A DNA stretch of 64,000 nt from Candidatus Dojkabacteria bacterium (GTDB lineage: Bacteria > Patescibacteriota > Dojkabacteria > B142 > WJKM01). Under the pieces are notes generated by a model. It was not told the DNA's origin and did not search any database. It saw only the letters and a list, made by a program, of their open reading frames with translations. The stretch is taken from NCBI GenBank assembly GCA_014729085.1, contig WJKM01000004.1, positions 4,345-68,344 of the forward strand, given 5' to 3'. This document shows positions 7,282 through 62,541 of the stretch, in pieces. Both the position numbers and the translations under genes were made by a program. Position 1 is the stretch's first letter; every line of letters starts with the position of its first letter.

Positions 7282-10200
7282 ATGGGTAAAACTAAATCTA
7301 CACTAGCACAAATCAGACAGTTTCGAATTGATAAAGCTAATGCTCTAAGAGAAAAAGGTATTGAACCTTATCCAACAAAAGCATCTAGAACAAATTACTC
7401 CGATGAGATTAAAAAAAATTATAGTGATTTTAAAGATAAAAAAGTGACTCTTGCCGGTCGTCTTATGTCATGGCGGGAACATGGACATATTATTTTTGGT
7501 GATATTCAAGATCAAAAGGGAGTCATTCAGCTTTATATTAAAGAAGATACTCTTAATGCAACTAATAAGCAAAAACAATCTATCGGCTTTGAAGATCTTG
7601 AATTACTAGACATAGGAGATATCATTGAAGCAACTGGAATTATAACTAAAACAAAAAGTGGAGAAATATCTATTTTAGCTCAGCAGATTAAAATTCTTAC
7701 GAAAGCCATCAGACCGCTTCCCGAAAAATGGATAGGACTTACTAATAAAGAGAAAATATTCAGAAAAAGATATTTAGATTTGATTGTAAATCCGGAAAAG
7801 AAATACAGATTTGAAAAAAGCGCGCAGATTGTTGCGGCGATAAGACAGTTTTTAAACGATAAAGGATTTCTGGAGATCAAAACACCCATAATTCAACCTT
7901 TATATGGAGGCACAAATGCACGCCCTTTTAAAACATACATGAATGCACTAAGTACAGATTTCTATTTAGCAATTTCTCATGAACTTTATTTAAAACGACT
8001 AATTACAGCAGGTTTTGACAATGTTTACAATATTGCGGGCTATTTCAGAAACGAAGGTATAGATAGATCCCATAATCCAGAATTTCAAATGATTGAAACT
8101 ATGAGTGCTTTTCATAATTATGAATACAATATGGATTTGATAGAAGAACTCTATCAATTTATAGGTAAAAACGTATTTAAGAAAAATATCTTCAAAGTTA
8201 GTGGCCAAGATGTCGACTTTAGTAAACCATGGGAAAGAATTATGATGATTGATGCTGTTAAAAAATATGCTGATATAAACTTTAATAAAATAAATGATAT
8301 TGATTCTGCTCATAATATACTCGCTAAAATTGGTTATGAAGAAGACAAACCAAATACAATTGGAGAATGTATGGTTAAAGTTTTCGAAGAGAAAGTTGAA
8401 GAACAATTAATTCAACCAACTTTTATTACCGGACATCCGGTTGAAATATCACCTCTTGCAAAACAAATGCCTTCTGATTCAAGATTTGTTGAAAGATTTG
8501 AAATCTTTATTGGCGGAATAGAAGGTGGAGATAATTGGACTGAACTTAATGACCCGGTTGAGTTGTATGAAAGACTTAAAGAACAAGTAGAGAGGGGTAG
8601 AGGAGGAGATGACGAATTTCATCCTATGGATGTTGATTTTATTGAATGTATGGAATATGGTATGCCTCCAACAACAGGACTTGGACCTGGCATTGAAAGA
8701 CTACAAATGATGTATTTGGAAACAGAATATATCGATGATGTAATATTCTTTCCAATACAAAGGCCAGCACCTCCAACTGAACTACAAAAAGAATTATATG
8801 GAGCAGAATATCTTGAAAGTAAAGAAAAAGAACTTAAAATACAATCAATAGAACAAAAAGATTTAGATAAACTACCTTCAAAAATAGATGCATTGGATCT
8901 ATTACATAAATATGTAGATGACGATTATCAGGTACTTCATGCAAAAATGGTTGCCGCCGCAATGCAAGATTATGCAGAGGATCTCGGGGCTAATCCGCAT
9001 CTATGGTATATAACCGGTTTACTGCATGATTTGGACTATGCAAAATATCCAGATAAACATCCTTATCAAGAACTTGAATGGTTCAAAGAATGGAAATATC
9101 CTGATCAATTCATACATGCAGTTGCTGCCCATGATCATCTGACAACCGGAGAAGAACCAGAAACTTTACTAGCTGCGGTGTTGCTTGCAGTTGATGAATT
9201 ATCCGGTATTCTCTATGCATATTCAAAAATGCGGGATAAGAATTTTTCCGGTATGAAAGCTAAATCTGCCATAAAAAAACTTGAGGATAAGAATTTTGCA
9301 GCAAAAATAAGCAGAGATGAGATTAAACATGGAATTAAATTATCTAAATTAGATTTAGAACCACATATCAAAAATATGATTACAACTTTTGATAATATGA
9401 AAGAATTTGGAGGTGACAAAGATTATACAGATAAAGTTGAAACAAAAGTTCATTCACTATTAACTAAAAAATTAAAACTTGCTGAGATAACTTCAGAAGT
9501 AAAAGAGAAGTTTCCTGGTATAAAATTCGGATATATAGTTCTTGAGGATGTGAAAGTTGATAAAAAAGATAAAAATTTAGACAAACTTAAAAAAGAAATA
9601 ATTTCTAAACTAGAATCTCAGTATACCGACAAATCTGAAATTAAGGAAAATGATAGGATTGAAGGATTTCGTAAAATCTATAAAAATTCCGGAGTTGATC
9701 CAAATAGTAGATTGAATAGTGCCGAAGCATTGCTAAGAAGAATTGTAAGCGGGAATGGTATATATAATGTAAACAATGTTGTAGATACATATAACATCAC
9801 TTCTGCTGAATTGGGCATTCCTATGGCTGCATATGATTTAGATAAAATAGAGGGTAGATTATCACTCCGTTTTGCAAATAAAGGAGAATCAATAATTAGA
9901 ATTGGAGAAGAAAAACCGAAGTTAATTGAGAAGGGAGAGTTAGTATATGCAGATAACAAAGGCATTACATGCATGGATTTTAATTATAGGGATGCAGATA
10001 GAACTAAAATTACAAAGGAAACAAATAAAATAATTGTATTTATAGATGGACATCAAACTATCAGTCAGAAGGAAATACTCTCCTCATTAAACCTGTTAGG
10101 ACAAAGACTTGAAACATACACAGAAGGTAAGGTAATTGGTTATGGGACTTCATGGGAGGAAGACAAAGTTCTTAACGAAGAAATCAAACAAGATATGAGT

Positions 10201-10605
10201 CGAAAGATGGTTATTGTAGTTGACAAAACATTAGAAAATTGGAAAGTTCTAAATATAGTTGGGCATGTATCTGCTTATCTAGGACATCAGATGGATGAAA
10301 AATTCAGTTCCGGCCCTGCATATAGAACAAAAGACGGAGTAAGATATGATAGAAGTTGCCAATATCCAATAATTGTTTTGCAAACTGATTCATCTAAATT
10401 GTTAGACCTCAAGGATCAGTCTGAATTATCAGATATCCTCTCTTTTTCTTTTACTAAACAACATCTAGAAATTGAGAAGGATGAAGATGTTGATGCATCC
10501 ATTTCAAATCTTGAAGAAAAAGAAATTGAGCTTTATGGTGTGGGTTTAGTAGGGGAAAAAGAAAAGTTAGACAAACTTACAAATAATTTTAAACTATGGA
10601 AGTAA
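7282..10605 (+). CDS. lysS: lysine--tRNA ligase (class II) fused to an HD phosphohydrolase domain, a B3/4 (PheT editing-like) domain and a DUF2000-like C-terminal domain
   Basis: Single uninterrupted 1107-aa ORF. Residues 1-500 are canonical class II LysRS (OB fold, FRNEG motif 2, GLGPGIERL motif 3). The HD domain spans about nt 8860-9440 (HAKMVAAAMQDYAEDLGANPHLWYITGLLHDLDY). The B3/4 domain spans about nt 9510-10060 (NNVVDTYNITSAELGIPMAAYDLDKIEGRLSLRFANKGESI...LVYADNKGITCMDFNYRDADRTKIT). The C-terminal 150 aa (VVVDKTLENWKVLNIVGHVSAYLGHQ) look DUF2000-like, a family reported to have a peptidyl-tRNA-hydrolase-like fold. Confidence 0.85.
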   Translation: MGKTKSTLAQIRQFRIDKANALREKGIEPYPTKASRTNYSDEIKKNYSDFKDKKVTLAGRLMSWREHGHIIFGDIQDQKGVIQLYIKEDTLNATNKQKQSIGFEDLELLDIGDIIEATGIITKTKSGEISILAQQIKILTKAIRPLPEKWIGLTNKEKIFRKRYLDLIVNPEKKYRFEKSAQIVAAIRQFLNDKGFLEIKTPIIQPLYGGTNARPFKTYMNALSTDFYLAISHELYLKRLITAGFDNVYNIAGYFRNEGIDRSHNPEFQMIETMSAFHNYEYNMDLIEELYQFIGKNVFKKNIFKVSGQDVDFSKPWERIMMIDAVKKYADINFNKINDIDSAHNILAKIGYEEDKPNTIGECMVKVFEEKVEEQLIQPTFITGHPVEISPLAKQMPSDSRFVERFEIFIGGIEGGDNWTELNDPVELYERLKEQVERGRGGDDEFHPMDVDFIECMEYGMPPTTGLGPGIERLQMMYLETEYIDDVIFFPIQRPAPPTELQKELYGAEYLESKEKELKIQSIEQKDLDKLPSKIDALDLLHKYVDDDYQVLHAKMVAAAMQDYAEDLGANPHLWYITGLLHDLDYAKYPDKHPYQELEWFKEWKYPDQFIHAVAAHDHLTTGEEPETLLAAVLLAVDELSGILYAYSKMRDKNFSGMKAKSAIKKLEDKNFAAKISRDEIKHGIKLSKLDLEPHIKNMITTFDNMKEFGGDKDYTDKVETKVHSLLTKKLKLAEITSEVKEKFPGIKFGYIVLEDVKVDKKDKNLDKLKKEIISKLESQYTDKSEIKENDRIEGFRKIYKNSGVDPNSRLNSAEALLRRIVSGNGIYNVNNVVDTYNITSAELGIPMAAYDLDKIEGRLSLRFANKGESIIRIGEEKPKLIEKGELVYADNKGITCMDFNYRDADRTKITKETNKIIVFIDGHQTISQKEILSSLNLLGQRLETYTEGKVIGYGTSWEEDKVLNEEIKQDMSRKMVIVVDKTLENWKVLNIVGHVSAYLGHQMDEKFSSGPAYRTKDGVRYDRSCQYPIIVLQTDSSKLLDLKDQSELSDILSFSFTKQHLEIEKDEDVDASISNLEEKEIELYGVGLVGEKEKLDKLTNNFKLWK

Positions 10606-10684
10606 TTTCTAATTTTGATTTAAAAATCAATAGGTATATAATCTAATCATATTTTGATTTTAAAATTTAAATAATTAAATTCCT

Positions 10685-11077
10685 ATGAAAACCTTAGTTC
10701 TTCCAAAGAAACTAAAAATTTCAAAAAGAAATCTTCTTTTTGAACTTATAGCGGGATTCATTATTTATTCCTGCATTATGCCCTTAATTATCTTTGATAT
10801 TTGGGCATCTATATATCAATGGATATACTTCGGTCTTAAAGGAATACCAAAAATCTCTAAAAATGATTTTATAGTAATTGACAGGCATCAACTGAAAAAA
10901 TTAAACATTTTTCAAAAAGTCAACTGTATATACTGTGGTTACGCAAATGGTTTAATCGCATGGATAAAAGCAATAATCAACCAAACGGAACTTTACAGCT
11001 GTGCTATTAAACATAAATCTCCATCCATTGGTCAGGAACATCAAAAACATTTCTATGATTTTGATGACTTTGTATAA
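10685..11077 (+). CDS. hypothetical small membrane protein with CxxC and distal Cys
   Basis: 130 aa. One or two predicted TM helices and CIYCGYANG...C. Confidence 0.45.
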   Translation: MKTLVLPKKLKISKRNLLFELIAGFIIYSCIMPLIIFDIWASIYQWIYFGLKGIPKISKNDFIVIDRHQLKKLNIFQKVNCIYCGYANGLIAWIKAIINQTELYSCAIKHKSPSIGQEHQKHFYDFDDFV

Positions 11078-11100
11078 ATTAAAATCTTAAAGCAATCAAT

Positions 11101-11643
11101 ATGCCATTACCAACTCGAGCTGAAGCTCAAAAACTCCTTGAAGAATACGTCACAGAGCCTTATCAACTATTACATGCCAAAATGAATGCTTTAGCGTTAG
11201 AAGCTTATGCAGAAAAATTTGGTGAAGATAAAGATTTATGGTATATCACAGGCTTATTACATGATCTGGATTACGACAAATTTCCGGATGAACATCCCGA
11301 TAGAGAACTTGCCTGGTTTAAAGAATGGGATTATCCAAAAGAATTAATTCATGCAGTTGACGCTCATGCATTCGGATACAAGGATTATATGACCGAACCA
11401 CAAACTAAACTTGCCAAAACATTGCTTGCAACCGATGAACTCTGTGGAATTATACACGCATATTCCTTAATGAGACCAACTGGTTATGAAGGTATGAAGG
11501 CAAGCAAAGCAAAGAAAAAATTTAAAGACAAAAGCTTTGCAGCTAAAGTTGATCGAGATGTTATAAAAAAGGGTGTAGATGCGATGGAAATTGACCTAAC
11601 TGAACATCTAGCTTTTTTGATTGGAGTCTTTCAAGATTTATAG
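11101..11643 (+). CDS. HD-domain phosphohydrolase, paralogue of the HD domain fused to LysRS
   Basis: DLWYITGLLHDLDYDKFPDEHPDRELAWFKEWDYP aligns almost residue for residue with HLWYITGLLHDLDYAKYPDKHPYQELEWFKEWKYP in the LysRS fusion. The overall YqeK/HDIG-like pattern is H...HD...H...D. Confidence 0.7.
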   Translation: MPLPTRAEAQKLLEEYVTEPYQLLHAKMNALALEAYAEKFGEDKDLWYITGLLHDLDYDKFPDEHPDRELAWFKEWDYPKELIHAVDAHAFGYKDYMTEPQTKLAKTLLATDELCGIIHAYSLMRPTGYEGMKASKAKKKFKDKSFAAKVDRDVIKKGVDAMEIDLTEHLAFLIGVFQDL

Positions 11644-11660
11644 ATTTTAAATTTGTCAAC

Positions 11661-12614
11661 TTGACTTCAAATACTATAAAAAAAATAAGTATTATTGTTC
11701 CTGTATACAATGAAGAGGAAGTGATAAATAAATTTTTTCAGAGAACTAGAAAGATCCTGGAAAAAATAAAATATAAATGGGAATTAATCTTTGTAAACGA
11801 TGGAAGCACTGATTCGACTTTACCTCTCCTGATTAAACTAGCTGAACAGAATTTAGATATTAAAATTATTAATTTTTCAAAAAACTTTGGCCATCAGCAA
11901 GCAGTTACAGCTGGATTTGACTATGCGAATGGTGATGCAGTTATTTCAATAGATGCAGATTTACAAGATCCTCCTGAACTTATCCCCAAGCTGATTGCAA
12001 AATGGGAAAAAGGAAATGAAGTGGTACACGCAAAACGTAAATCCAGGAAAGATGGCATATTAAAAATTTTAACTGCCACAATTTTTTATAAATTTTTGAA
12101 TCTTTTACTTCAAACCAAAATACCAGAAAATGTAGGTGATTATAGATTGTTGGATCGAAAGGTTATTCATGTATTTAAAAAACTGCCTGAAAAAAACCGG
12201 TATCTTAGAGGTCTTTCCTCTTGGGTTGGTTTTAAACAAACTTTTGTTAAATTTCATCGAGATAAAAGACATGCAGGGAAAACAAAATATTCTCTTGCAA
12301 AAATGCTTAAATTGGCTTCAAACGCAGTTTTTTCATTTTCAAGATTTCCTATTAGATTGGCAAGATACTTGACTGTCATATTTGGTCTATCTTCTTGTGG
12401 AATTTTTATATATGTTTTGTATTCCTGGATACAAGATAATGTTGTACCCGGATGGGCGTCTCAAATTTTAATCATGCTAATTTTTACTTCAATCAATTTG
12501 GTAATACTAAGCATAATTTCCGAATATGTAAGTAGAATTTATAATCAGGTTCAAGGCAGGCCAATTTATATAATCTCAGACACATACAATATAAATAAAT
12601 CGAAACATGAATAA
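11661..12614 (+). CDS. GT2 polyprenyl-phosphate glycosyltransferase (GtrB/ArnC/DPM1-like) with C-terminal TM helices
   Basis: IIVPVYNEEEVI, VNDGSTDST, ISIDADLQDPPELI, plus a C-terminal hydrophobic pair. Apparent TTG start at 11661, since there is no in-frame ATG before the VPVYNEE motif. Confidence 0.75.
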   Translation: MTSNTIKKISIIVPVYNEEEVINKFFQRTRKILEKIKYKWELIFVNDGSTDSTLPLLIKLAEQNLDIKIINFSKNFGHQQAVTAGFDYANGDAVISIDADLQDPPELIPKLIAKWEKGNEVVHAKRKSRKDGILKILTATIFYKFLNLLLQTKIPENVGDYRLLDRKVIHVFKKLPEKNRYLRGLSSWVGFKQTFVKFHRDKRHAGKTKYSLAKMLKLASNAVFSFSRFPIRLARYLTVIFGLSSCGIFIYVLYSWIQDNVVPGWASQILIMLIFTSINLVILSIISEYVSRIYNQVQGRPIYIISDTYNINKSKHE

Positions 12615-12822
12615 ATCTAAGTCCAATTCGGATAAAATTAATAAAAGAGAAAAAATCCGTATCCTTGCAACATGTTCTGGTTGTTTAATATTTATATGTT
12701 TTATTTGTTTATTAATAAGTTATATAATTGTTAACAACCAAAGTTTCAAAAAGGGGTATTGTGACGAATGGGAAATTCAAGGAGCTGAACCTGAATTAGA
12801 TCCATTAAATCTATGTAACTGA
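12607..12822 (+). CDS. hypothetical small single-pass membrane protein
   Basis: 71 aa with one hydrophobic helix (CSGCLIFICFICLLISYIIV). Confidence 0.3.
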   Translation: MNKSKSNSDKINKREKIRILATCSGCLIFICFICLLISYIIVNNQSFKKGYCDEWEIQGAEPELDPLNLCN

Positions 12823-12845
12823 TCTTATTTCTTAAAATTTATAAT

Positions 12846-13184
12846 ATGGAAGAAAATAAAAAGAAGAAAAAAGGACCTTTATTTTGGATTGCATCAACTA
12901 GTTTATTTTGGCTGATTTTCATATCCTTAATTACTTTAATTCTATTTGTGTTACTTGCCTCTAATAGAAATATACAAATTATGGCTCTCGAAAAAATTCA
13001 AAACCAAATGGGGCTAGAAACTGATTCTCCCTTGCTAAAATCAGAAAGGGAAGAATCTTTAGAGCAGGAATTGGAAGAAGCTAAAGAGGACCTAAAAGAA
13101 GTTGAAATTGAATTAAAAGTGGAAAAAGAAATTAGACAAGAACTCCTTAAAAATTGCAAGTCAAATTCAGGAGATTCTCTTTAA
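12846..13184 (+). CDS. hypothetical membrane-anchored coiled-coil acidic protein
   Basis: 112 aa with an N-terminal TM segment and an E/K-rich heptad-like tail. Confidence 0.4.
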   Translation: MEENKKKKKGPLFWIASTSLFWLIFISLITLILFVLLASNRNIQIMALEKIQNQMGLETDSPLLKSEREESLEQELEEAKEDLKEVEIELKVEKEIRQELLKNCKSNSGDSL

Positions 13185-14403: not shown

Positions 14404-16983
14404 TTAATTATCTGCTTGATATTTATCTAATAATTTTTGTTTCTCTATTGCTTCAGCAAGCATCTGCATATAAAGTGCAAGTCCTACGTTTTGTATATTA
14501 CCGTGCTGTTGCTTACCAAGTAAATTTCCTGCACCACGTATTTCTAAATCTCTGGAAGCTAATTTAAACCCAGATCCCAGTTCTTGATTTTCAACTATTG
14601 CTCTAAGTCTCTCTTTATATTTCTGATTCTTTCTTTTCCTTTGAATCGCCTCAATTTCTTCATCATCTAGATCAACCTGGGTTTCGACAGACGACGAACT
14701 TAACTCATCTCCTTTATAGTAAATATAACAATAAGCCTGCTTTTCAGACCTTCCGACCCGTCCTCTAAGTTGATAAAGTTGTCCTAAACCAAAATTCTGG
14801 CCATTGTTTATAATTATTGTATTAACATTAGGCATATCTATACCATTTTCTATTATGGTAGTACATATCAAAACATCATATTTTTTATCATAAAACATGG
14901 AAATAGCCTCATCTAATTTTCTCGAACTCATCTGGCCATGCCCAACAATAAATCTAATATCAGGTAACAACTTTTGCAATCGAGCTCTAATAGATTCTAT
15001 AGTTTCGACTCGATTATGAATAAAATAAACTTGCCCACCGCGTTTTAATTCATTCTCTATTTGAAAAACAATTTTTGTCCAATCAAGTTTAGCAACTTCA
15101 GTTTTAATTGATCTGCGATCGTCAGGAGGGGTTGCAATAATTGAAATATCCTTTATTTGAGATAATGCCATACTTAAAGTCCTCGGAATTGGAGTTGCTG
15201 TCATAGCAAGTGAATGAGCTGTATATTGAAGTTTTTTTATTTTTTCTTTTTGCTTTACTCCAAATTTTTGTTCTTCATCGATTACAATGAGTCCTAGATT
15301 TTTAAATTCAACATCATTGGATAAGAGTCTATGTGTACCAACTAATATATCCAGACTTCCTTTTTTAGCTTCTTTTATTATAGTTTTATTAACACTTGGT
15401 GTATGAAAACGGGATACATAATTTACATTGATCCCGAAATTCTCAAATCTTTCTTTAAAAACTTTAAAATGTTGAGCAGCAAGGACAGTTGTAGGGCAGA
15501 GTACAGCTACTTGTTTTCCGGTCTCAATAATTTTAAAAGCAGCTCTCATTGCAACTTCAGTCTTACCAAATCCTACATCTCCAACTATCAATCTGTCCAT
15601 TGGTTTTTCTGAACTCAAATCTTGTAATATGTCTTTTATTGTTGTTTTCTGATCTTCGGTTTCTTCATATGGAAAAGCCTGTACAAATGACTTATAAAAT
15701 TCTGTATGAATTTCATTAAGTTTTTCTGCTTTCGCCAATTGTACCTTAGCATAGTGCTGTACCAAATCTCGAGCAATTAATTCTATTGATTTTTTAGTTT
15801 TTTTAACAGTTCGTTTCCAATTACCTTTATGAAGCCTTGTGATATCGGGATCTTCTTCTGTAGTACCTATATATTTTGTTATCTTCTGAATTTGAGAAAT
15901 GGGAACAAGTAATTCATCTCCTTTGGCATACTGAATTAATAAGTAGTCATCTAATCTTTCGGTTTTAATAGTCTGAAAATCTACTGTTTTAGTTTCGATA
16001 ATCTTTTCCTGTTTAATACCTTTATATATTCCAATTCCATGATCTTCATGGACAACATAGTCATCAAGTTCTATTTCTCCTTCTAACTTTTCTAATATTT
16101 TTTGGGCTTGTTTTGTTGTTAAATCTTTTCTTTCCTTTTGTAAAAAAATTGTTCCAAAGAGCTCTCGATCAGTGAGTAAAATCATTTTTAACTTTTGAGA
16201 AGAAAAACCAGCTTGATATCCATTATCTTCAAGTTCTATTAGATATTTTCTTTGTTCAACAGGAATTTCATTTTTATGTCTTGTATGTATGAAAATCTTC
16301 CAATTATCGTCTTCAAGCTTTTTAAGATAATCATTTAATAAATCAAATCTTTTATAAAAAAGTTGAGGATAAGTAAAATCGAAATTAAATCTTGTGATAT
16401 AAAACCCTTGAATTATTTCTTCTTCATCAAATTGAATATGTGAAAATAAAAGTACCAAGTTTGGATTAAAATTTTCATTGCCGCTTATCTTGATTTCATA
16501 CCAATCTATTTTATCCGGAAGCTTAGCTATATCCCCAATTGCAACGCTGTTTATACGTTTAATTTTAGTATTATATACTTCATCATATATCTCGATATAT
16601 TCAATTTCATCTCCAAAATAAGATACTCTTATTGGATGTTCATATCCAATGGGCCAGAACGTAATACTGTCTCCTTTAGTTGAATATTCTGATACTGTCT
16701 CGACTTTACTAGTTTTTTCAAAGCCATTTTCTTGTAGTGTGAATTCGAGTCCAGCAAATGAATATGCTTCATCTTCTAAATTAAACATGGACAAGGAGTT
16801 AATGTATTTCTGAATATCAGAATTATTTCTCTTTGAATAAACGAAATTTTGTTTAATTGTATTGACTAATTCCTGAATAAAATTTTCCTGAAGATGGGGA
16901 AGTAACCCACTTACAAGAAATAGTGTAGGTTTATTATAAAATTTATTTTCAATTTCTAAACTTGTGAATATTTGCATGATCAA
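14404..16983 (-). CDS. mfd: transcription-repair coupling factor Mfd (short form, 859 aa)
   Basis: RNAP-interacting CarD/TRCF domain (DDYVVHEDHGIGIYKGI). Helicase motifs LIVGDVGFGKTEVAMRAA, DEEQKFGV, QVYFIHNRVETIE. C-terminal TRCF domain (LLGKQQHGNIQNVGLALYMQML). Confidence 0.85.
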   Translation of the reverse strand: MIMQIFTSLEIENKFYNKPTLFLVSGLLPHLQENFIQELVNTIKQNFVYSKRNNSDIQKYINSLSMFNLEDEAYSFAGLEFTLQENGFEKTSKVETVSEYSTKGDSITFWPIGYEHPIRVSYFGDEIEYIEIYDEVYNTKIKRINSVAIGDIAKLPDKIDWYEIKISGNENFNPNLVLLFSHIQFDEEEIIQGFYITRFNFDFTYPQLFYKRFDLLNDYLKKLEDDNWKIFIHTRHKNEIPVEQRKYLIELEDNGYQAGFSSQKLKMILLTDRELFGTIFLQKERKDLTTKQAQKILEKLEGEIELDDYVVHEDHGIGIYKGIKQEKIIETKTVDFQTIKTERLDDYLLIQYAKGDELLVPISQIQKITKYIGTTEEDPDITRLHKGNWKRTVKKTKKSIELIARDLVQHYAKVQLAKAEKLNEIHTEFYKSFVQAFPYEETEDQKTTIKDILQDLSSEKPMDRLIVGDVGFGKTEVAMRAAFKIIETGKQVAVLCPTTVLAAQHFKVFKERFENFGINVNYVSRFHTPSVNKTIIKEAKKGSLDILVGTHRLLSNDVEFKNLGLIVIDEEQKFGVKQKEKIKKLQYTAHSLAMTATPIPRTLSMALSQIKDISIIATPPDDRRSIKTEVAKLDWTKIVFQIENELKRGGQVYFIHNRVETIESIRARLQKLLPDIRFIVGHGQMSSRKLDEAISMFYDKKYDVLICTTIIENGIDMPNVNTIIINNGQNFGLGQLYQLRGRVGRSEKQAYCYIYYKGDELSSSSVETQVDLDDEEIEAIQRKRKNQKYKERLRAIVENQELGSGFKLASRDLEIRGAGNLLGKQQHGNIQNVGLALYMQMLAEAIEKQKLLDKYQADN

Positions 16984-20594: not shown

Positions 20595-20835
20595 ATTATT
20601 TCAAAAAATCTAAAATATAATTTACTATAGTAATATACATGAAAATCTGTTTAATTTACAAATATCTTTAACAGTAAAGATCTTTGGGGAAAAATATGTT
20701 TTTATTATCAAATAAATTTATAGTATAATGGACAATGCAAAAAAATTGTTATAATAGAATCTGCATAGAGAAGCTATACTCAAAAAAAATTACTTCTTTA
20801 AAAATTTGGGAAGTTCTGAATAAACTATTTATTTT

Positions 20836-20919
20836 GCCGTTGTGGCGGAACTGGTAGACGCGCTGGTCTTAGGAACCAGTGGGAGCAATCCCGTGGAGGT
20901 TCGATTCCTCTCGACGGCA
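20836..20919 (+). tRNA. tRNA-Leu (anticodon UAG), no encoded CCA
   Basis: Cloverleaf folded by hand. Acceptor stem GCCGTTG/CGACGGC, anticodon stem CTGGT/ACCAG with loop CTTAGGA (U33, UAG, A37), long variable arm, T-arm GAGGTTCGATTCCTC. Confidence 0.85.
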
Positions 20920-20941
20920 TTTGGTAAATATATTAGTGTTC

Positions 20942-21065
20942 TTGTTACGGAAATTGGAAATTTTTTAAAAATTTACATTTTTCCGTACAAGCTGCCGAAA
21001 TTCCACATAAGCTTGCTGAAGTGGAATGAAGGCAAATAATTCCGAGCATAGCGAGGATTATATGC
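20942..21065 (+). repeat. copy 1 of a roughly 120-bp intergenic repeated element, immediately downstream of tRNA-Leu
   Basis: About 85-88% identical to 55989-56100. Contains an 8-bp inverted repeat TACGGAAA...TTTCCGTA and the hairpin TTCCAC-n14-GTGGAA at 21001-21026. Confidence 0.6.
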
Positions 21066-21159
21066 ATACCAAAAGTAACTAGGAAGGCAGACATAGATCC
21101 CTCTCGTTCATACTTAAACTTCTTTATAGAAAATAATTACAATTATTTTCACTCTGACT

Positions 21160-21630
21160 TCATTTGGATCTCTTAAAATATTCACCTAAATAATACCTAT
21201 ACATTGCTCCTGTTTCTCTAGGAATCTTCTTTTGTTTACTTATAAACTTAAAAGTTGAAAAATGCTCTTTATTGATTTTAATTTTATCGTTTGTATCGAC
21301 TGCTATGAGATATCCAGTAGATAAATCTTGTCTTTGTTCTTCACTTCTAAATTTTCCAACATATTGTCCTAAAAAAATTTTTTTCGATGGGTCAATTCTT
21401 ATACTAATTTCATTTTTTACTATTCTTATGAGAGTCTCATCTATACTTTCTCCCTTATATATTCTTAGACCTGGCAAGGCCCATTTATTCTTGTAAGGAG
21501 CAATCTTTCTTTTTAAGAGCAATACTCCTTTTCCATTAATTTCTAGAATTAAATCAAATGTTGGAATAACCATCCATTTTAATATTTTTTCAAACACATC
21601 CCGGGGGGCATAGCATTTATCTTGTGGCAT
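21160..21630 (-). CDS. Nudix-like hydrolase with degenerate Nudix box
   Basis: ALPGLRIYKGESIDETLIRIVKNEISI approximates GX5EX7REUXEEXGU with substitutions. Confidence 0.4.
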   Translation of the reverse strand: MPQDKCYAPRDVFEKILKWMVIPTFDLILEINGKGVLLLKRKIAPYKNKWALPGLRIYKGESIDETLIRIVKNEISIRIDPSKKIFLGQYVGKFRSEEQRQDLSTGYLIAVDTNDKIKINKEHFSTFKFISKQKKIPRETGAMYRYYLGEYFKRSK

Positions 21631-21693: not shown

Positions 21694-21716
21694 GAAGGGG
21701 TTCGCCCCTTTTTAAA
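21694..21716 (+). terminator. GC hairpin followed by a T-run (terminator-like) in the intergenic region
   Basis: AAGGGG-ttcg-CCCCTT followed by TTTT. It sits on the plus strand between a minus-strand gene start and a plus-strand gene, so its role is unclear. Confidence 0.3.
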
Positions 21717-45541: not shown

Positions 45542-45571
45542 ATTTTAATGGAATTTTCATTTTAAATTTAA

Positions 45572-45598
45572 ACGACGGGAGTAACTCCCGTCGTTTTT
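45572..45598 (+). terminator. rho-independent terminator after pflB
   Basis: ACGACGGGAG-taa-CTCCCGTCGT followed by TTTT. Confidence 0.8.
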
Positions 45599-46703: not shown

Positions 46704-46838
46704 GTATTCCTTCCTTTACTTATCTTCCGTAATTATTCGGTTGTCTTTATCTAAGTAAGTTGTTATTATTTCTCAATTTTTATAAACTTTAGATGCAAAT
46801 CCACATTATTACGTTTATTTGGCTTAATCTTTTTATTA

Positions 46839-46868
46839 AAAGAGTCCCCCAGGGACTCTTTTTTTTTA
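46839..46868 (+). terminator. rho-independent terminator after pflA
   Basis: AAGAGTCCC-cca-GGGACTCTT followed by nine T. Confidence 0.75.
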
Positions 46869-53396: not shown

Positions 53397-55655
53397 ATGC
53401 CTAAAATAAATATTAAGAAACCAAATCTTAAGATTCACAAAGTTTTTTTCTCAAATCTGAATTCTTTAATTTTTAAAGAACTGAAATCCTATTTTAATAG
53501 CCCGATAGTTTACATTGTTGCATTTGTTGGAATCATTTTTCATTTCTTTTTCTTTTTATTTTTAGGTGCTTTTTTCCAAAATGGCGTATCTGATTTAACT
53601 ACTTATTTTGAATCACTGCCATGGATATTTTTATTAATGGTTCCTGCTTTTACAATGGGATCCATTTCTAAAGAAATCAATCAAGGTACAGATGAATATA
53701 TACTTACTAAACCCGTTAAAACCATTGAGTTTGTGTTAGCAAAAGTTGTTGCAGCATTTTCTTTTATTTTAATTACATTACTTTTTGAACTACCAGCTGT
53801 TATTACTATTATCACAGCCGGTGATTTTGACATTGGCAAGCTCTTTACTCAATATCTGGCTGTTATTTTTGTTGCTTTTTGTCTTACAACAGTAGGAGTG
53901 TTTTACTCAAGTGTAGTAAAGAATCAAATCGGTTCATTATTACTAACCTTACTCTCAAACTTTATTATTCTATTTATTGGAAGTAGGGTAGTTACATTTG
54001 TTTTACCTCTTTTTCTTGCCCCATACATTGAAAGAATCAGCTTAATTACCCACTTTGAATCCATGCTTAAAGGAGTAATAGATTTACAGGATTTAATTTA
54101 TTTTACGGGTTTTGCACTATTTTTCATAACATTGATTTATTACAAAATAAGTACAATAAGACTTCCAAAAAAAAGTATAAAGTTAACAAAATTAAGATTT
54201 ACAACACTACTATTATTAGTAATCATATTTTTTATTACTGGTTTTGGACAAAAGATACCTGGAAGTATAGATCTGACTAGAAATAAAATCAATACTTTGT
54301 CGGAAGTAAGCAAAGATATTAGCAAAAATTTAGATGAAAAAACTACTATTCAACTTTACTATTCCGAGTCATTACCAGCTGGGCTTCAAACCATAAAAAG
54401 AGATACAATATCTCTATTAAATGATTTTAAAAAAGCTGGTAACGATAAAATACGGATTGTACATAAAATTGGAGATACTACAAAGGCTATGGATAAGGGC
54501 ATCCGTGTGGAAAAACAAGGATCAGGGAATTTATCAACTTTACAAATCTCTGATGTCTATCTTGGGCTTGTTATTAAATATAAAGATCAGGAAGAAACAA
54601 TTGCCTCCATATCCAATACAAATAATCTTGAATATGAAATTACCAGTACACTTACAAAATTATCTAACAAAGATAAAAAAGTCATAGGTATTTTAGATAC
54701 CAAGGTACGAAATACCTCAACTACTGGCTTAACTGCCTTTAAATCTACTCTTGAACGTGAATATACCGTTGAGTCAATTATTTTCGATGAAGAACAACGT
54801 ACTATAGATAGTGAAAAATTTGATGCAATCATTATTTCTGCACCCAACCAAGAAATGTCTGAAGAAATGCAGGGAGAAATTAGAAGATACTTTGATGAGG
54901 GTGGGGCACTCTTCTTTATGGTAGATCCAATTAACGTACAAACCCAAATGATGTTTTCAGCAAGCAGTGTTGAATCGCCATTAAACAATTTTTTTGAAGA
55001 TCTTGGAATTACAGTAGAAAAAACACTTCTCTTTGATCTTAAAAGTTATGCCAGCTTGCAGCATCCAAACTACGTTTTTGGAATCCCATATCCATTTTTT
55101 ACAATTACCGCAAATACAGGAGAAAACAATTCATTTAATAATATTTCAAGTGTAATGCTAGGTTGGGCAAGTTGGATCAGGATTGATGAAGAAAAAGTCC
55201 ATAATATAGAAATTACACCTATACTGCAAACTTCAAATTTTGCTGGTTTCCAAAAAGAAGGTGAATTCAACATCGAAATGGAACAGACCTGGGACAACAT
55301 TAAAGAAAACGAATTAGACCAATATACTGTTGCTGTATCATTTGTTGAACAAGATGACTCTCCTGGACGAGCTGTCTTGGTATCAGATTCCGATTTTCTT
55401 ACAAATCAATATGGACATCTTGAAAGCTACCAGAATAGTGCATTTGGACTTACTTCAATTGAATGGTTGGTTCAAAACGAAGCTCTGTCTTCCATTAAAG
55501 GCAAAAGCAGACAGATAGCTCCTCTTATGGTTAAAAGTCCTGCTCATGCTCTGTTTTTAAATATCATGATGTTTTCTCCGTTTGCTCTAATCCTTCTAAT
55601 AGCAGCTGGAAAATTCATACTAAGAAAAAGAGAGATGAAGAAAGTGTATAAATAA
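53397..55655 (+). CDS. ABC-2 permease fused to a GldG-like extracytoplasmic domain
   Basis: Six N-terminal TM helices (ABC-2/GldF-like), a roughly 450-aa soluble region resembling GldG auxiliary components, and a C-terminal TM anchor. Confidence 0.6.
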   Translation: MPKINIKKPNLKIHKVFFSNLNSLIFKELKSYFNSPIVYIVAFVGIIFHFFFFLFLGAFFQNGVSDLTTYFESLPWIFLLMVPAFTMGSISKEINQGTDEYILTKPVKTIEFVLAKVVAAFSFILITLLFELPAVITIITAGDFDIGKLFTQYLAVIFVAFCLTTVGVFYSSVVKNQIGSLLLTLLSNFIILFIGSRVVTFVLPLFLAPYIERISLITHFESMLKGVIDLQDLIYFTGFALFFITLIYYKISTIRLPKKSIKLTKLRFTTLLLLVIIFFITGFGQKIPGSIDLTRNKINTLSEVSKDISKNLDEKTTIQLYYSESLPAGLQTIKRDTISLLNDFKKAGNDKIRIVHKIGDTTKAMDKGIRVEKQGSGNLSTLQISDVYLGLVIKYKDQEETIASISNTNNLEYEITSTLTKLSNKDKKVIGILDTKVRNTSTTGLTAFKSTLEREYTVESIIFDEEQRTIDSEKFDAIIISAPNQEMSEEMQGEIRRYFDEGGALFFMVDPINVQTQMMFSASSVESPLNNFFEDLGITVEKTLLFDLKSYASLQHPNYVFGIPYPFFTITANTGENNSFNNISSVMLGWASWIRIDEEKVHNIEITPILQTSNFAGFQKEGEFNIEMEQTWDNIKENELDQYTVAVSFVEQDDSPGRAVLVSDSDFLTNQYGHLESYQNSAFGLTSIEWLVQNEALSSIKGKSRQIAPLMVKSPAHALFLNIMMFSPFALILLIAAGKFILRKREMKKVYK

Positions 55656-55687
55656 ATCTGAAAATAAATAACCTAGAATGAATTATA

Positions 55688-55900
55688 TTAATAAAGTGAA
55701 CCGTGTGCTGAATTATTAACTACAGGCATATGTCCACCTTTTCTTGGATCCCTATGCAAAGATCCAGAACTTGATTTTCTTCGGGTATCATAGGGTCCAA
55801 GTCCATCATTTGGTCCCCATCGGTCATCAGTTACATCTCGCCAGTCGCCATGATATGGATCTTCTGACGTTACAAATACTAGATTTTGTTCTATTTCCAT
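55688..55900 (-). CDS. hypothetical small hydrophilic protein (G/D/P/H/R/W-rich), GC-elevated
   Basis: 70-aa ORF whose GC is far above the window average. No signal peptide and no recognisable motif. Confidence 0.3.
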   Translation of the reverse strand: MEIEQNLVFVTSEDPYHGDWRDVTDDRWGPNDGLGPYDTRRKSSSGSLHRDPRKGGHMPVVNNSAHGSLY

Positions 55901-55988
55901 ATTTGAATAATTAAATATAGGTTACTGTATTTAATTATATCATTAAAAGATATATTTTCAATATATATTATTAATATTCATAGGTTTA

Positions 55989-56100
55989 TTGTTACGGAAA
56001 TTGGAAATTTTCTAAAAATTTACATTTTACATACAAGTTGCCGAAATCCTGTTTTACGGGATGAAGGCAAATAATTCCGAGCGTAGCGAGGATTATGTGC
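55989..56100 (+). repeat. copy 2 of the roughly 120-bp intergenic repeated element
   Basis: Aligns with 20942-21065, with one 14-nt indel. The hairpin region carries compensatory changes (ATCCTG-ttttaC-GGGAT versus TTCCAC...GTGGAA). Confidence 0.6.
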
Positions 56101-56185
56101 TTAGTAATTAAAGAAGCTTATATGACCGAAAATCCAACTAATACAGATAATTACTATTGTATGTAAAATGGAATTCCACTTATTA

Positions 56186-57385
56186 TTAGACCGTAAATTT
56201 TCCATGTTCATAAATTACTTTACTTCCTCCATCAAGTAGATATGCTGTTACTTTTCTTTCCTCGGTGGTAATTATATCTGTGTGCTCGGGAGAGTAATTA
56301 AAGCCCATTTTTTCCCACTCATCTTTTTTGACCTTGCGAGCATCGCCTTCAAACGCATCTTTATATGCCATACCAACTGCAATATGCATGTTACCGTTTT
56401 CTCCGCCTACATTTTCATCATACAAAGTATTTGCCATAAATTTAGTTATACGAGAAAATCTAGAATCTGTTAGTGAAAATTCACCAACTTTATTGGCATT
56501 TTCCCTTTTGATCATTTTCTCTAGTATTTCTTGGCCTTCACCAGCTTCAGCTTTTGAAACAAGTCCTTCTTTAAATTCAATTCTTATATCTCTTAAAATG
56601 TTGCCATAGCGATACAAAGGCTGATTAAAGTAAATATAGCCTTCAGTGCCCCTCCAATCTGGCGATGTAAATATTTCGTAACTTGGAATGTTTCTACCAT
56701 TTCCGCCTAACCATTGTCTTCTTGGGCCAATTTTTACCTTTAAATCAATGTTTTCACCTTTAGCATGTACATAATCAATATCCAAAGAATTTAATTCTTT
56801 CTTGATTCGTTCTTGTTCGTTCATTATTTTCTTCCATTCCTCCTTTGGGTTTTCCTTATCAAGATAACAGGCGTGGATAATTTCCTGCCAATATTCTTCT
56901 AAACTCATATTTGCTTCTTTTGCCATACCTTCAGTTCCATAAAGACCCATTGTCCATGTAAATTTACCACGTCTTTCTTTTTCATCGAGCCACTCACGAA
57001 CCTTTTTACGTGCATCGGCTGATTTCATAATCTTTTCCGGATTAATATCTTTCAATTCCTGAGGATCAACTTCTGACAACACTCCGATTTGATGATCAAT
57101 TAAATCGCATCTTGCCTTTTGATATTCTTCTGGAAAAAAAACAATTTGGCCGTCGCTTGCATGAACGAAAAAATCCTTATTAATTCCTGTTGGTATCATT
57201 CTCATAATTGGGTGAGCACCTGCTTTTAATAAAGTTTTATGCAATTCAATTAACAAAGGTTTTGCAACATCATCTACAATACACATAACAATCTCATCTT
57301 TCTTAACTCCTTTTCCTGAGTTTAAAGCAAAGTTCACAAGTAAATCTGCGTATTTTTCTAATGTTTTTTTTGACGGTTTATACAT
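56186..57385 (-). CDS. M29-family aminopeptidase (AmpS/PepS/aminopeptidase T-like)
   Basis: N-terminal LEKYADLLVNFALNSGKGVKKDEIVMCIVDDVAKPLLIELHKTLLKAGAHPIM closely follows the M29 N-terminal consensus. 399 aa. Confidence 0.75.
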   Translation of the reverse strand: MYKPSKKTLEKYADLLVNFALNSGKGVKKDEIVMCIVDDVAKPLLIELHKTLLKAGAHPIMRMIPTGINKDFFVHASDGQIVFFPEEYQKARCDLIDHQIGVLSEVDPQELKDINPEKIMKSADARKKVREWLDEKERRGKFTWTMGLYGTEGMAKEANMSLEEYWQEIIHACYLDKENPKEEWKKIMNEQERIKKELNSLDIDYVHAKGENIDLKVKIGPRRQWLGGNGRNIPSYEIFTSPDWRGTEGYIYFNQPLYRYGNILRDIRIEFKEGLVSKAEAGEGQEILEKMIKRENANKVGEFSLTDSRFSRITKFMANTLYDENVGGENGNMHIAVGMAYKDAFEGDARKVKKDEWEKMGFNYSPEHTDIITTEERKVTAYLLDGGSKVIYEHGKFTV

Positions 57386-57429: not shown

Positions 57430-57909
57430 CTAATGACTTTCTACAATCTCTAATTTTTCATTGAATTTATTATAAGTATAGACCAGTTCATGTTTCTTTA
57501 AACTTTGCATAATCTTAATATGATTTTTCAAATCCGGATATATATTTTTACTATTCAGAGCCTCGTTATACCCAAGCCAAACGGGTTTCCCAAAAGCCTT
57601 TTCCTGTTTAATTAGTCTGCCAGAAAAATTAGTTGAGGAAAAAATAAAAACTATATAAACTTTTGATTGATATTCATGGTTGTGAGTAGCTATTATCTTC
57701 AATTTGGGATCCCTGATTTTCAAACCTGTTTCTTCTTTGGTTTCTCTAATTGCTGTTTTGGATGGAGTTTCATTAACCTCTTGTTTACCGCCTGGGAGCA
57801 TCAGCCAACCAGGAAAATCCTTTAAATTTTTGTCTCTTTGAACAAACAAAATTTGATCATCTTTTGTTATTAATGTATTTGTAGTACTAATAAAATCAAT
57901 CTTCTTCAT
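57430..57909 (-). CDS. Nudix hydrolase
   Basis: Canonical Nudix box GGKQEVNETPSKTAIRETKEETGL. Confidence 0.8.
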   Translation of the reverse strand: MKKIDFISTTNTLITKDDQILFVQRDKNLKDFPGWLMLPGGKQEVNETPSKTAIRETKEETGLKIRDPKLKIIATHNHEYQSKVYIVFIFSSTNFSGRLIKQEKAFGKPVWLGYNEALNSKNIYPDLKNHIKIMQSLKKHELVYTYNKFNEKLEIVESH

Positions 57910-62489: not shown

Positions 62490-62512
62490 ATCAAATCTAT
62501 TAGTATAGTGCA

Positions 62513-62541
62513 AAAGCGTGAATTTATTTCACGCTTTTTTG
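62513..62541 (+). terminator. rho-independent terminator after the dsbA-like gene
   Basis: GCGTGAA-tttat-TTCACGC followed by TTTTTT. Confidence 0.7.

Follow-up and report, generated by a model that had tools for sequence, protein, structure and literature searches.

Does a sequence of about 130 nt, which stands twice between the genes of a Dojkabacteria genome, act as an RNA, or is it only a repeat of the DNA? The window, i.e., the whole stretch of 64,000 nt that was analyzed, has ~30% GC and carries one tRNA gene. In this 64-kb window the element occurs as direct repeats at 20934-21068 and 55981-56103, 35 kb apart. The two copies and their immediate neighbors are as follows.

20836..20919, + strand: tRNA-Leu gene (anticodon UAG) with no encoded CCA, detected by ARAGORN and by Rfam (RF00005, 56.3 bits), directly upstream of copy 1
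20934..21068, + strand: copy 1 of the element, 135 nt, found by alignments, by the repeat finder and with the covariance model (161.9 bits), with an RNA fold of -35.3 kcal/mol (z = -3.97)
21160..21630, - strand: NUDIX hydrolase gene (Pfam), convergent with copy 1, with its stop codon 92 nt from the element
55688..55900, - strand: orphan ORF of 70 aa, divergent from copy 2, with a strong promoter of its own at 55961..55934 (- strand)
55943..55971, + strand: weak sigma-70-like promoter match (TTAAAA-17-TATTAT, 9/12), from which transcription would be expected to start at the left edge of copy 2
55981..56103, + strand: copy 2 of the element, 123 nt, found by alignments, by the repeat finder and with the covariance model (139.8 bits), with an RNA fold of -26.3 kcal/mol (z = -2.0)

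When the copies were aligned with MAFFT, they shared 89% mean column identity over 131 columns, and the gaps were one of 1 nt and one of 11 nt, the latter being an indel that sits within one hairpin. The repeat finder recovered the element in two halves, 20934-20981/55981-56028 (92% identity) and 21023-21068/56058-56103 (91%), and two stretches of 23 nt, TTGTTACGGAAATTGGAAATTTT and GATGAAGGCAAATAATTCCGAGC, are exact in both copies. The two-copy repeat that a first-pass annotation of this DNA had reported was thereby confirmed at both places. The same annotation had pointed to an 8-bp inverted repeat, TACGGAAA/TTTCCGTA (20946-20953/20980-20987), which is indeed perfect in copy 1 and is degenerate in copy 2 (TTTACATA). 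No third copy was detected in the 64-kb window by blastn or with a covariance model derived from the two copies. At up to 3 mismatches, the window also held no further match to the 5′ 23-mer or to an 18-mer of the third hairpin (P3, see below; 0-0.03 expected). The element is the only significant repeat in the 64 kb, and the repeat finder returned no other family of comparable quality. Since the sequences that flank copies 1 and 2 are unrelated, both by alignment and with the repeat finder, the copies do not mark the borders of a larger duplication, which was one of the outcomes that the first-pass annotation had named as speaking against its reading. Its claim that neither copy is coding also held: the 11-nt indel breaks any long frame, so that no long frame is shared, and only an ORF of 16-18 codons is common to both. 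The element is therefore real and non-coding.

We then considered the fold. When each copy was folded on its own, three hairpins common to both copies were predicted on the + strand, and the RNAalifold structure of the pair agrees with them. Their positions are given below.

20942..20990, + strand: P1 of copy 1, a long AT-rich hairpin with the GC clamps UUGU/ACAA and ACGGAAA/UUUCCGU
20993..21034, + strand: P2 of copy 1, a UGCC/GGCA stem that leads through a symmetric internal loop (GAA/GAA) to an inner hairpin of variable sequence, AUUCCAC-[14 nt]-GUGGAAU
21036..21061, + strand: P3 of copy 1, AUAAU-U-CC-GA-GC-AUA-GC-GA-GG-AUUAU, with tandem G·A mismatches, a triloop and one bulged U
55989..56036, + strand: P1 of copy 2, the same hairpin, in which two outer pairs are broken (C·A and G·A) and 1 nt is deleted; a shifted register can still pair
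56039..56069, + strand: P2 of copy 2, with the outer stem and GAA/GAA loop identical to those of copy 1 and the inner hairpin replaced by AUCCUG-UUUUA-CGGGAU
56071..56096, + strand: P3 of copy 2, identical to that of copy 1 except for the first triloop base (GUA vs AUA)

On the + strand, purines make up all ten internal-loop bases, which are invariant between the copies. The variable part of the fold is the tip of P2. A variable hairpin after the conserved gccgaaat had been claimed by the first-pass annotation, and it is real, with AUUCCAC...GUGGAAU in copy 1 and AUCCUG-UUUUA-CGGGAU in copy 2. When the two inner hairpins are aligned, two pairs are changed on both sides (U-A to C-G and A-U to G-C), one pair becomes a U·G wobble, and the loop is replaced, with 14 nt in copy 1 and 5 nt in copy 2. 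The whole tip may also have been exchanged in one event. Among the 13 substitutions between the copies, 6 fall in loops or linkers, 5 keep the pairing in P2 and 2 break pairs in P1; hence, most of the differences are in loops or preserve the pairing. The changes that had been called "compensatory" amount to two double changes that keep their pairs, and covariation equal to or better than the observed one (2 double changes, 1 wobble and 2 broken pairs, n=2 sequences) was obtained in 127 of 500 shuffles, which is not significant. Because there are two sequences only, such counts are without statistical weight. The strand asymmetry of the fold carries more weight as evidence than the counts of changed pairs. 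On the + strand, the fold z-scores against shuffled sequence were -3.97 (RNA parameters) and -5.16 (DNA parameters) for copy 1, and -2.0 and -2.73, respectively, for copy 2. The - strand of copy 2 was indistinguishable from its shuffles (z = -0.99 with RNA and -0.31 with DNA parameters), and that of copy 1 does beat shuffled sequence. A closing stem, UUGGUA/UACCAA, can be drawn around copy 1, and it has no counterpart in copy 2. A kink-turn was also considered and rejected by direct reading, since the tandem G·A of P3 lacks a bulge, and the symmetric GAA/GAA loop of P2 lacks a G·A step after a bulge.

The hairpin P3 deserves a separate comment. It combines tandem sheared G·A pairs with a GNA-type triloop, which is a known stable module. 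Mini-hairpins of the d/r(GCGNAGC) type were reportedly described by Hirao and co-workers in the 1990s, and P3 is the same module as these GCGNAGC-type, tandem sheared G·A hairpins, with a Y-GA-R tandem mismatch, two G-C pairs and an NUA triloop. The hairpin CC-GAGC-NTA-GCGA-GG was also observed inside several unrelated multi-copy, strongly structured intergenic elements of ~100-200 nt in other phyla: at five loci of a Chitinivibrionales bin, six of a Bacteroidales bin and eleven of Bifidobacterium. The stems of these elements covary (e.g., L048 vs L091), none of them has a match in Rfam, and at the two positions next to the forced CC/GG the bases can pair in 68% and 73% of the 91 contexts, respectively. 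They may be undescribed RNA or repeat families. The sequence around P3 in these elements is unrelated to ours, and with our covariance model they score no more than 18.8 bits, compared with 140-162 bits for the true copies. The P3 module is a building block, and not a sign of kinship.

The searches for homologues were negative throughout. The first-pass annotation had proposed to look for the element in Rfam and for further copies in related genomes. At the gathering score only the tRNA was matched by Rfam in the whole window, and when both loci were compared with Rfam 15 at E-values up to 10, only matches at chance level were obtained (ARRPOF, 15.5 bits with a cutoff of 127; Rota_CRE, 18.7 bits with a cutoff of 40). 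The covariance model (R1) was run with default filters and with the filters off, and gave no significant match in ~130 kb of Dojkabacteria relatives (L100-L108, L115, L116, L119 and L120) and nothing significant in ~270 kb of other loci. The best match with the filters off (16 bits, 15782-15883 of L100) was rejected, since it is an array of short TGTYCCAA-like repeats with an unremarkable fold; in the same locus, about ten short TGT(T/C)(A/C)CAA repeats lie at 15840-16000, upstream of acetate kinase, and resemble a set of protein-binding sites. A scan of the genome collection with the core of P2 and P3 (GAAGGCN{4,12}CCGAGCNTAGCGAGG) returned 99 loci, all unrelated and mostly GC-rich, none of which had the architecture of the element, and a stricter, AT-flanked pattern had 0 matches in the metagenome scan. 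When the metagenomes were scanned with the 3′ half of the tRNA-Leu, only a different Leu isoacceptor from other lineages was found, with nothing similar downstream. Among viral contigs there was one chance 20-mer inside a coding region and no homologue, blastn against phages and plasmids gave only AT-rich matches of 22-27 nt, and a literature search yielded nothing relevant to the element. The family is hence known only from the two copies, because no homologue was present in the collections searched. The reading of the element as a structured RNA, as proposed by the first-pass annotation, is thus supported in part: both copies are predicted to form the same fold and the + strand beats shuffled sequence in both, and the support is limited by the lack of a Rfam match, of homologues and of a terminator, by the absence of the element from the syntenic sites of the nearest relatives and by the broken P1 pairs of copy 2.

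The setting of the two copies is not the same. The homology of copy 1 begins 14 nt after tRNA-Leu(UAG), on the same strand, and the strict repeat 22 nt after it, so that copy 1 occupies the position of a tRNA 3′ trailer, and copy 2 does not. In front of copy 2 there is the promoter-like sequence listed above, which is at the level expected by chance in AT-rich DNA (6 such matches found vs 4.1 expected). Both copies face, on the + strand, the 3′ end of a convergent gene, and therefore the element is not a 5′ leader. The intergenic regions that hold the element, of 565 and 530 nt, are the two longest in the window, in a genome in which convergent genes usually abut, and they share the highest intergenic GC content in the window (0.31 vs 0.16-0.30 for nearly all others). 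Long intergenic regions with raised GC are a signature by which structured RNAs are picked out in AT-rich genomes. No intrinsic terminator was found on either strand at 20600-21300 or 55650-56300, and canonical terminators do occur elsewhere in the window (e.g., at 45570-45596, 46838-46862 and 62512-62538). A canonical-looking + strand terminator, AAGGGG-TTCG-CCCCTT followed by TTT, was observed at 21695-21713, between the start of the NUDIX gene and Bax1-I; it could end a transcript of tRNA-Leu and the element that runs antisense through the NUDIX gene. An internal promoter in P1 (TTGTTA-17-TTAAAA) was rejected because its -10 is poor, and readings of P1 or P2 as a DnaA box or a parS site were ruled out on sequence. 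The complement of the hairpin tip of copy 1 had no target in the window.

The neighboring genes were also analyzed. The 70-aa ORF (55688-55900, - strand) has a GC content above that of its surroundings, and its promoter (55961..55934) is an 11/12 match to sigma-70, including the TG of an extended -10. Among 1.84 billion representative proteins it had no homologue, apart from two weak, repeat-like matches. Each copy of the element lies near a NUDIX gene (21160-21630 and 57430-57909, both on the - strand), and both of these genes are absent from the syntenic positions of relatives. The one NUDIX gene is not related to the other (21% identity, E = 1.2), and no similar element was present in the context of a NUDIX homologue (P0122).

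The reading that we rank first, tentatively and with somewhat less than an even chance of being right, is that the element is a lineage-restricted small structured RNA of the + strand, which has two paralogous copies and of which copy 1 is transcribed with tRNA-Leu. It is ranked first because of its strand-specific fold, its invariant purine loops around a variable stem, its position after a tRNA, and the fact that ~130 nt of non-coding sequence are kept twice in a compact genome. Counted in its favor are the fold shared by the copies with its + strand z-scores, the purine loops, the pattern of the substitutions, the long and GC-raised intergenic regions, the proximity of the tRNA, the promoter-like site of copy 2 and the occurrence of the P3 module elsewhere. 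Counted against it are n=2, the lack of a terminator, of a Rfam match and of homologues, the absence in relatives, the degraded P1 of copy 2, and a promoter match at chance level.

If the element is such an RNA, the following steps can be proposed. Copy 1 would be transcribed together with tRNA-Leu, since there is no room for a promoter of its own, and it would be freed as a structured 3′ trailer when the 3′ end of the tRNA is cleaved. Processing of the RNase Z type would be expected here, because the tRNA-Leu has no encoded CCA. Transcription of copy 2 would depend on the weak promoter, whose predicted start site coincides with the left edge of the homology. The parts that do not vary, i.e., P3 with its tandem G·A, the GAA/GAA loop in P2 and the 5′ side of the P1 hairpin, would be the functional surfaces, and these would most likely bind a protein or make a tertiary contact, or else bind another RNA, with the tip of P2 being free to vary. 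A bolder version, which we regard as unlikely, is that the element represents a new class of structured RNA of one Dojkabacteria lineage that rides in part on the tRNA-Leu precursor, in which the purine loops dock a protein or RNA and the P2 tip confers specificity on each paralogue.

The main alternative, which we judge possible but the less probable of the two, is that the element is a young, lineage-specific intergenic repeat without RNA function, whose DNA was copied between two insertion-prone sites, and which is either REP/ERIC/BOX-like or a scar of the gain of the neighboring genes. The hairpins would then be a property of the DNA, and the variable tip the result of a hairpin replacement in one step. 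Three proteins encoded in the window are 100% identical to proteins of a single Candidatus Dojkabacteria MAG, to which MBD3362218.1 and MBD3362183.1 belong. The nearest relatives of the host show 70% (M29 peptidase) and 60% (MutS) identity in a protein database of 5.8 billion clusters. One of them (L115) keeps the order PBP-AAA-MgsA-Bax1, tRNA-Leu(UAG), hyp-MutS, and in it the tRNA-Leu is separated from Bax1-I by 96 nt with a small hairpin and without the element or the NUDIX gene, compared with 866 nt, with both, in the window. In a similar way, M29 peptidase and ABC_aux are convergent neighbors in L100, L102 and L105, where they lie 241, 155 and 56 nt apart, respectively, whereas the same gap is 530 nt in the window and holds the 70-aa orphan ORF and copy 2, neither of which is present at the syntenic loci of the relatives; the gene order XFP-ABC-ABC_aux, M29-MgtC is kept across the site of copy 2 in L100 and L105. 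The two copies are thus in lineage-specific DNA, which counts in favor of a young repeat, and the gene order is kept across both. The closest homologues of the NUDIX protein encoded at 21160-21630 come from scattered phyla, and transfer is therefore suggested, which also favors this alternative. REP-like inverted repeats, GTCATYCCTGC...GCAGGRATGAC, were observed in the M29 and ABC_aux region of L100 (7790-7920) and L102 (2560-2680), where the window has copy 2, and this motif (GTCATYCC) is absent from the window; relatives thus have other hairpin repeats in the same intergenic region. That P3 is a short hairpin found in repeat families of many phyla, that no terminator follows the element and that it has no homologues would fit a simple repeat as well. 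However, terminal inverted repeats and a target-site duplication were both missing on direct reading, the window encodes neither a transposase nor an integrase nor a reverse transcriptase, and just two copies are present in 64 kb. Moreover, neutral decay does not predict a strand-asymmetric fold, or all-purine loops that stay invariant while a stem varies. A MITE or non-autonomous transposon was rejected on similar grounds, since its termini (TAGTGTTCTTGTT... and ...GATTATATGCATA) do not form inverted repeats, no duplication is seen in the flanks, and the window holds only two copies.

It is improbable that the functional strand is the - strand, with the element serving as a 3′ UTR structure or as a terminator or insulator behind the NUDIX gene (21160-21630) and the M29 peptidase gene (56186-57385), so that transcripts would be kept from reading through into the antisense strand of tRNA-Leu and the promoter region of the 70-aa ORF. 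This arrangement would account for the position of the copies, which begin 83-92 nt after the stop codons of these - strand genes, and for copy 2 lying just upstream of the strong - strand promoter at 55961..55934; in addition, one of the two breaks in P1 of copy 2 would be a G·U pair on the - strand. It is at odds with the fold, since for copy 2 the - strand does not beat shuffled sequence with either parameter set, the internal loops would become all-pyrimidine mismatches, and the U·G in P2 of copy 2 turns into A·C. Furthermore, the - strand lacks a U-run after the element, and the search for terminator-like sites was negative.

Very improbable is the proposal that a very small protein (MKANNSEHSEDYMHTKSN and MKANNSERSEDYVLSN) is the product of the conserved 3′ half, with the 5′ half acting as promoter and leader. 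An ORF that starts with ATG does lie at the same place in both copies (18 and 16 codons), with only one residue different among the first 12 codons. However, the two differences within the shared part are both non-synonymous and the C-terminal ends are dissimilar, and direct reading showed no Shine-Dalgarno-like sequence at a usable distance and an ATG that is hidden in the P2 stem, on its 3′ strand. By our own estimate, in DNA of 30% GC a given ATG would be followed by a 16-codon open frame with a chance probability of ~0.26, and the conservation runs 85 nt upstream without a frame.

That the copies are direct repeats of the attL/attR type, 35 kb apart and bounding an island integrated at tRNA-Leu, is refuted, in spite of copy 1 adjoining a tRNA gene, which is a common integration site, since the 35 kb are ordinary chromosomal genes with a flat GC content and without integrase, transposase, reverse transcriptase or other mobile genes, the gene order across both copies is kept in relatives (L100/L105 and L115), and the repeat neither overlaps the tRNA nor comes with a second copy of the tRNA 3′ end. 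The first-pass annotation had already held that the element is no att remnant, and the conserved synteny and the lack of an integrase in the window agree with it. An integron attC site was also rejected: the element forms three hairpins instead of a single one, GTTACGG and CCGTAAC depart from the core consensus RYYYAAC ... GTTRRRY, no integrase is present, and the orientation relative to the neighboring extra gene differs between the two loci.

Several side observations were made during this work. At two loci of Firmicutes type (L017, 2195-2300, and L083, 7319-7423), a tRNA (Ala and Gln, respectively) with its terminator precedes an inverted copy of the 3′ end of the tRNA, behind which lies a conserved GAAGGCGACYGTGCCGAGCRTAGCGAGGTAAAAACGTCACAGTGTGACGTTTT block; in L017, the gene for SRP RNA comes next. 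In the window, the ORF at 7282-10605 (+ strand) encodes a fusion of 1107 aa, in which a class II tRNA synthetase of the Asp/Asn/Lys type is joined to HD, B3_4 and DUF2000 domains; relatives have a shorter synthetase-DUF2000 protein (666-673 aa) beside separate HD genes. At ~10000-13000 the cumulative GC skew peaks and the gene orientation, predominantly + before, becomes predominantly -, a pattern like that of a replication origin or terminus.

Taken together, the element plausibly acts as an RNA, and with n=2 and one metagenome-assembled genome it is a candidate small structured RNA or intergenic repeat. Two sequences from one such genome make it, at present, a lead rather than a result. Genomes of the candidate phyla radiation are small and tightly packed, and therefore 125-135 nt of conserved non-coding sequence that is kept twice is unlikely to be idle. 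To our knowledge, almost nothing has been learned about the non-coding RNAs of these bacteria. If the element is an RNA, it would be an orphan class of unusual origin, i.e., a tRNA trailer with a free-standing paralogue, and a clean case of conserved purine loops around a variable stem, and if it does represent a new class, few regulatory or scaffold RNAs of candidate phyla radiation bacteria would have been described before it. Should it prove to be no more than a repeat, the element would point to two intergenic sites that are prone to insertion and at which this lineage gained small genes.

How does the element compare with known systems? It shows none of the tested defining features of Rfam families, MITEs, attC sites, K-turns or intrinsic terminators. 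By analogy, it would work most like a tRNA-trailer RNA, in the case of copy 1, or like two sibling sRNAs, and in part it resembles the repeats of the REP/ERIC type. The REP/BIME, ERIC, BOX, RUP and Correia elements are hairpin-rich, non-coding, intergenic sequences of ~35-150 nt, which often lie between convergent genes and are lineage-specific. Our element is likewise hairpin-rich, non-coding and intergenic, and relatives have other hairpin repeats at the same site, but it differs in its two copies in the window, in the lack of terminal inverted repeats, in its three hairpins instead of one long palindrome, and in its strand-asymmetric fold. Sibling sRNAs (Qrr1-5, PrrF1/2, OmrA/B) normally have an intrinsic terminator and a conserved single-stranded seed, neither of which is present in the element; what it would share with them is the presence of two paralogous, intergenic, non-coding units of ~100-130 nt with conserved blocks and a variable segment. 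The third system is 3′ETS-leuZ of E. coli, reportedly described by Lalaouna and co-workers in 2015 as an RNA from a tRNA 3′ external transcribed spacer. 3′ETS-leuZ is short and base-pairs with sRNAs. The element has no sequence relation to it and has a second copy that is free of any tRNA. Nevertheless, a stable RNA that stems from the trailer right behind a tRNA-Leu, and that is released by processing of the precursor without a promoter of its own, is what copy 1 would be expected to yield.
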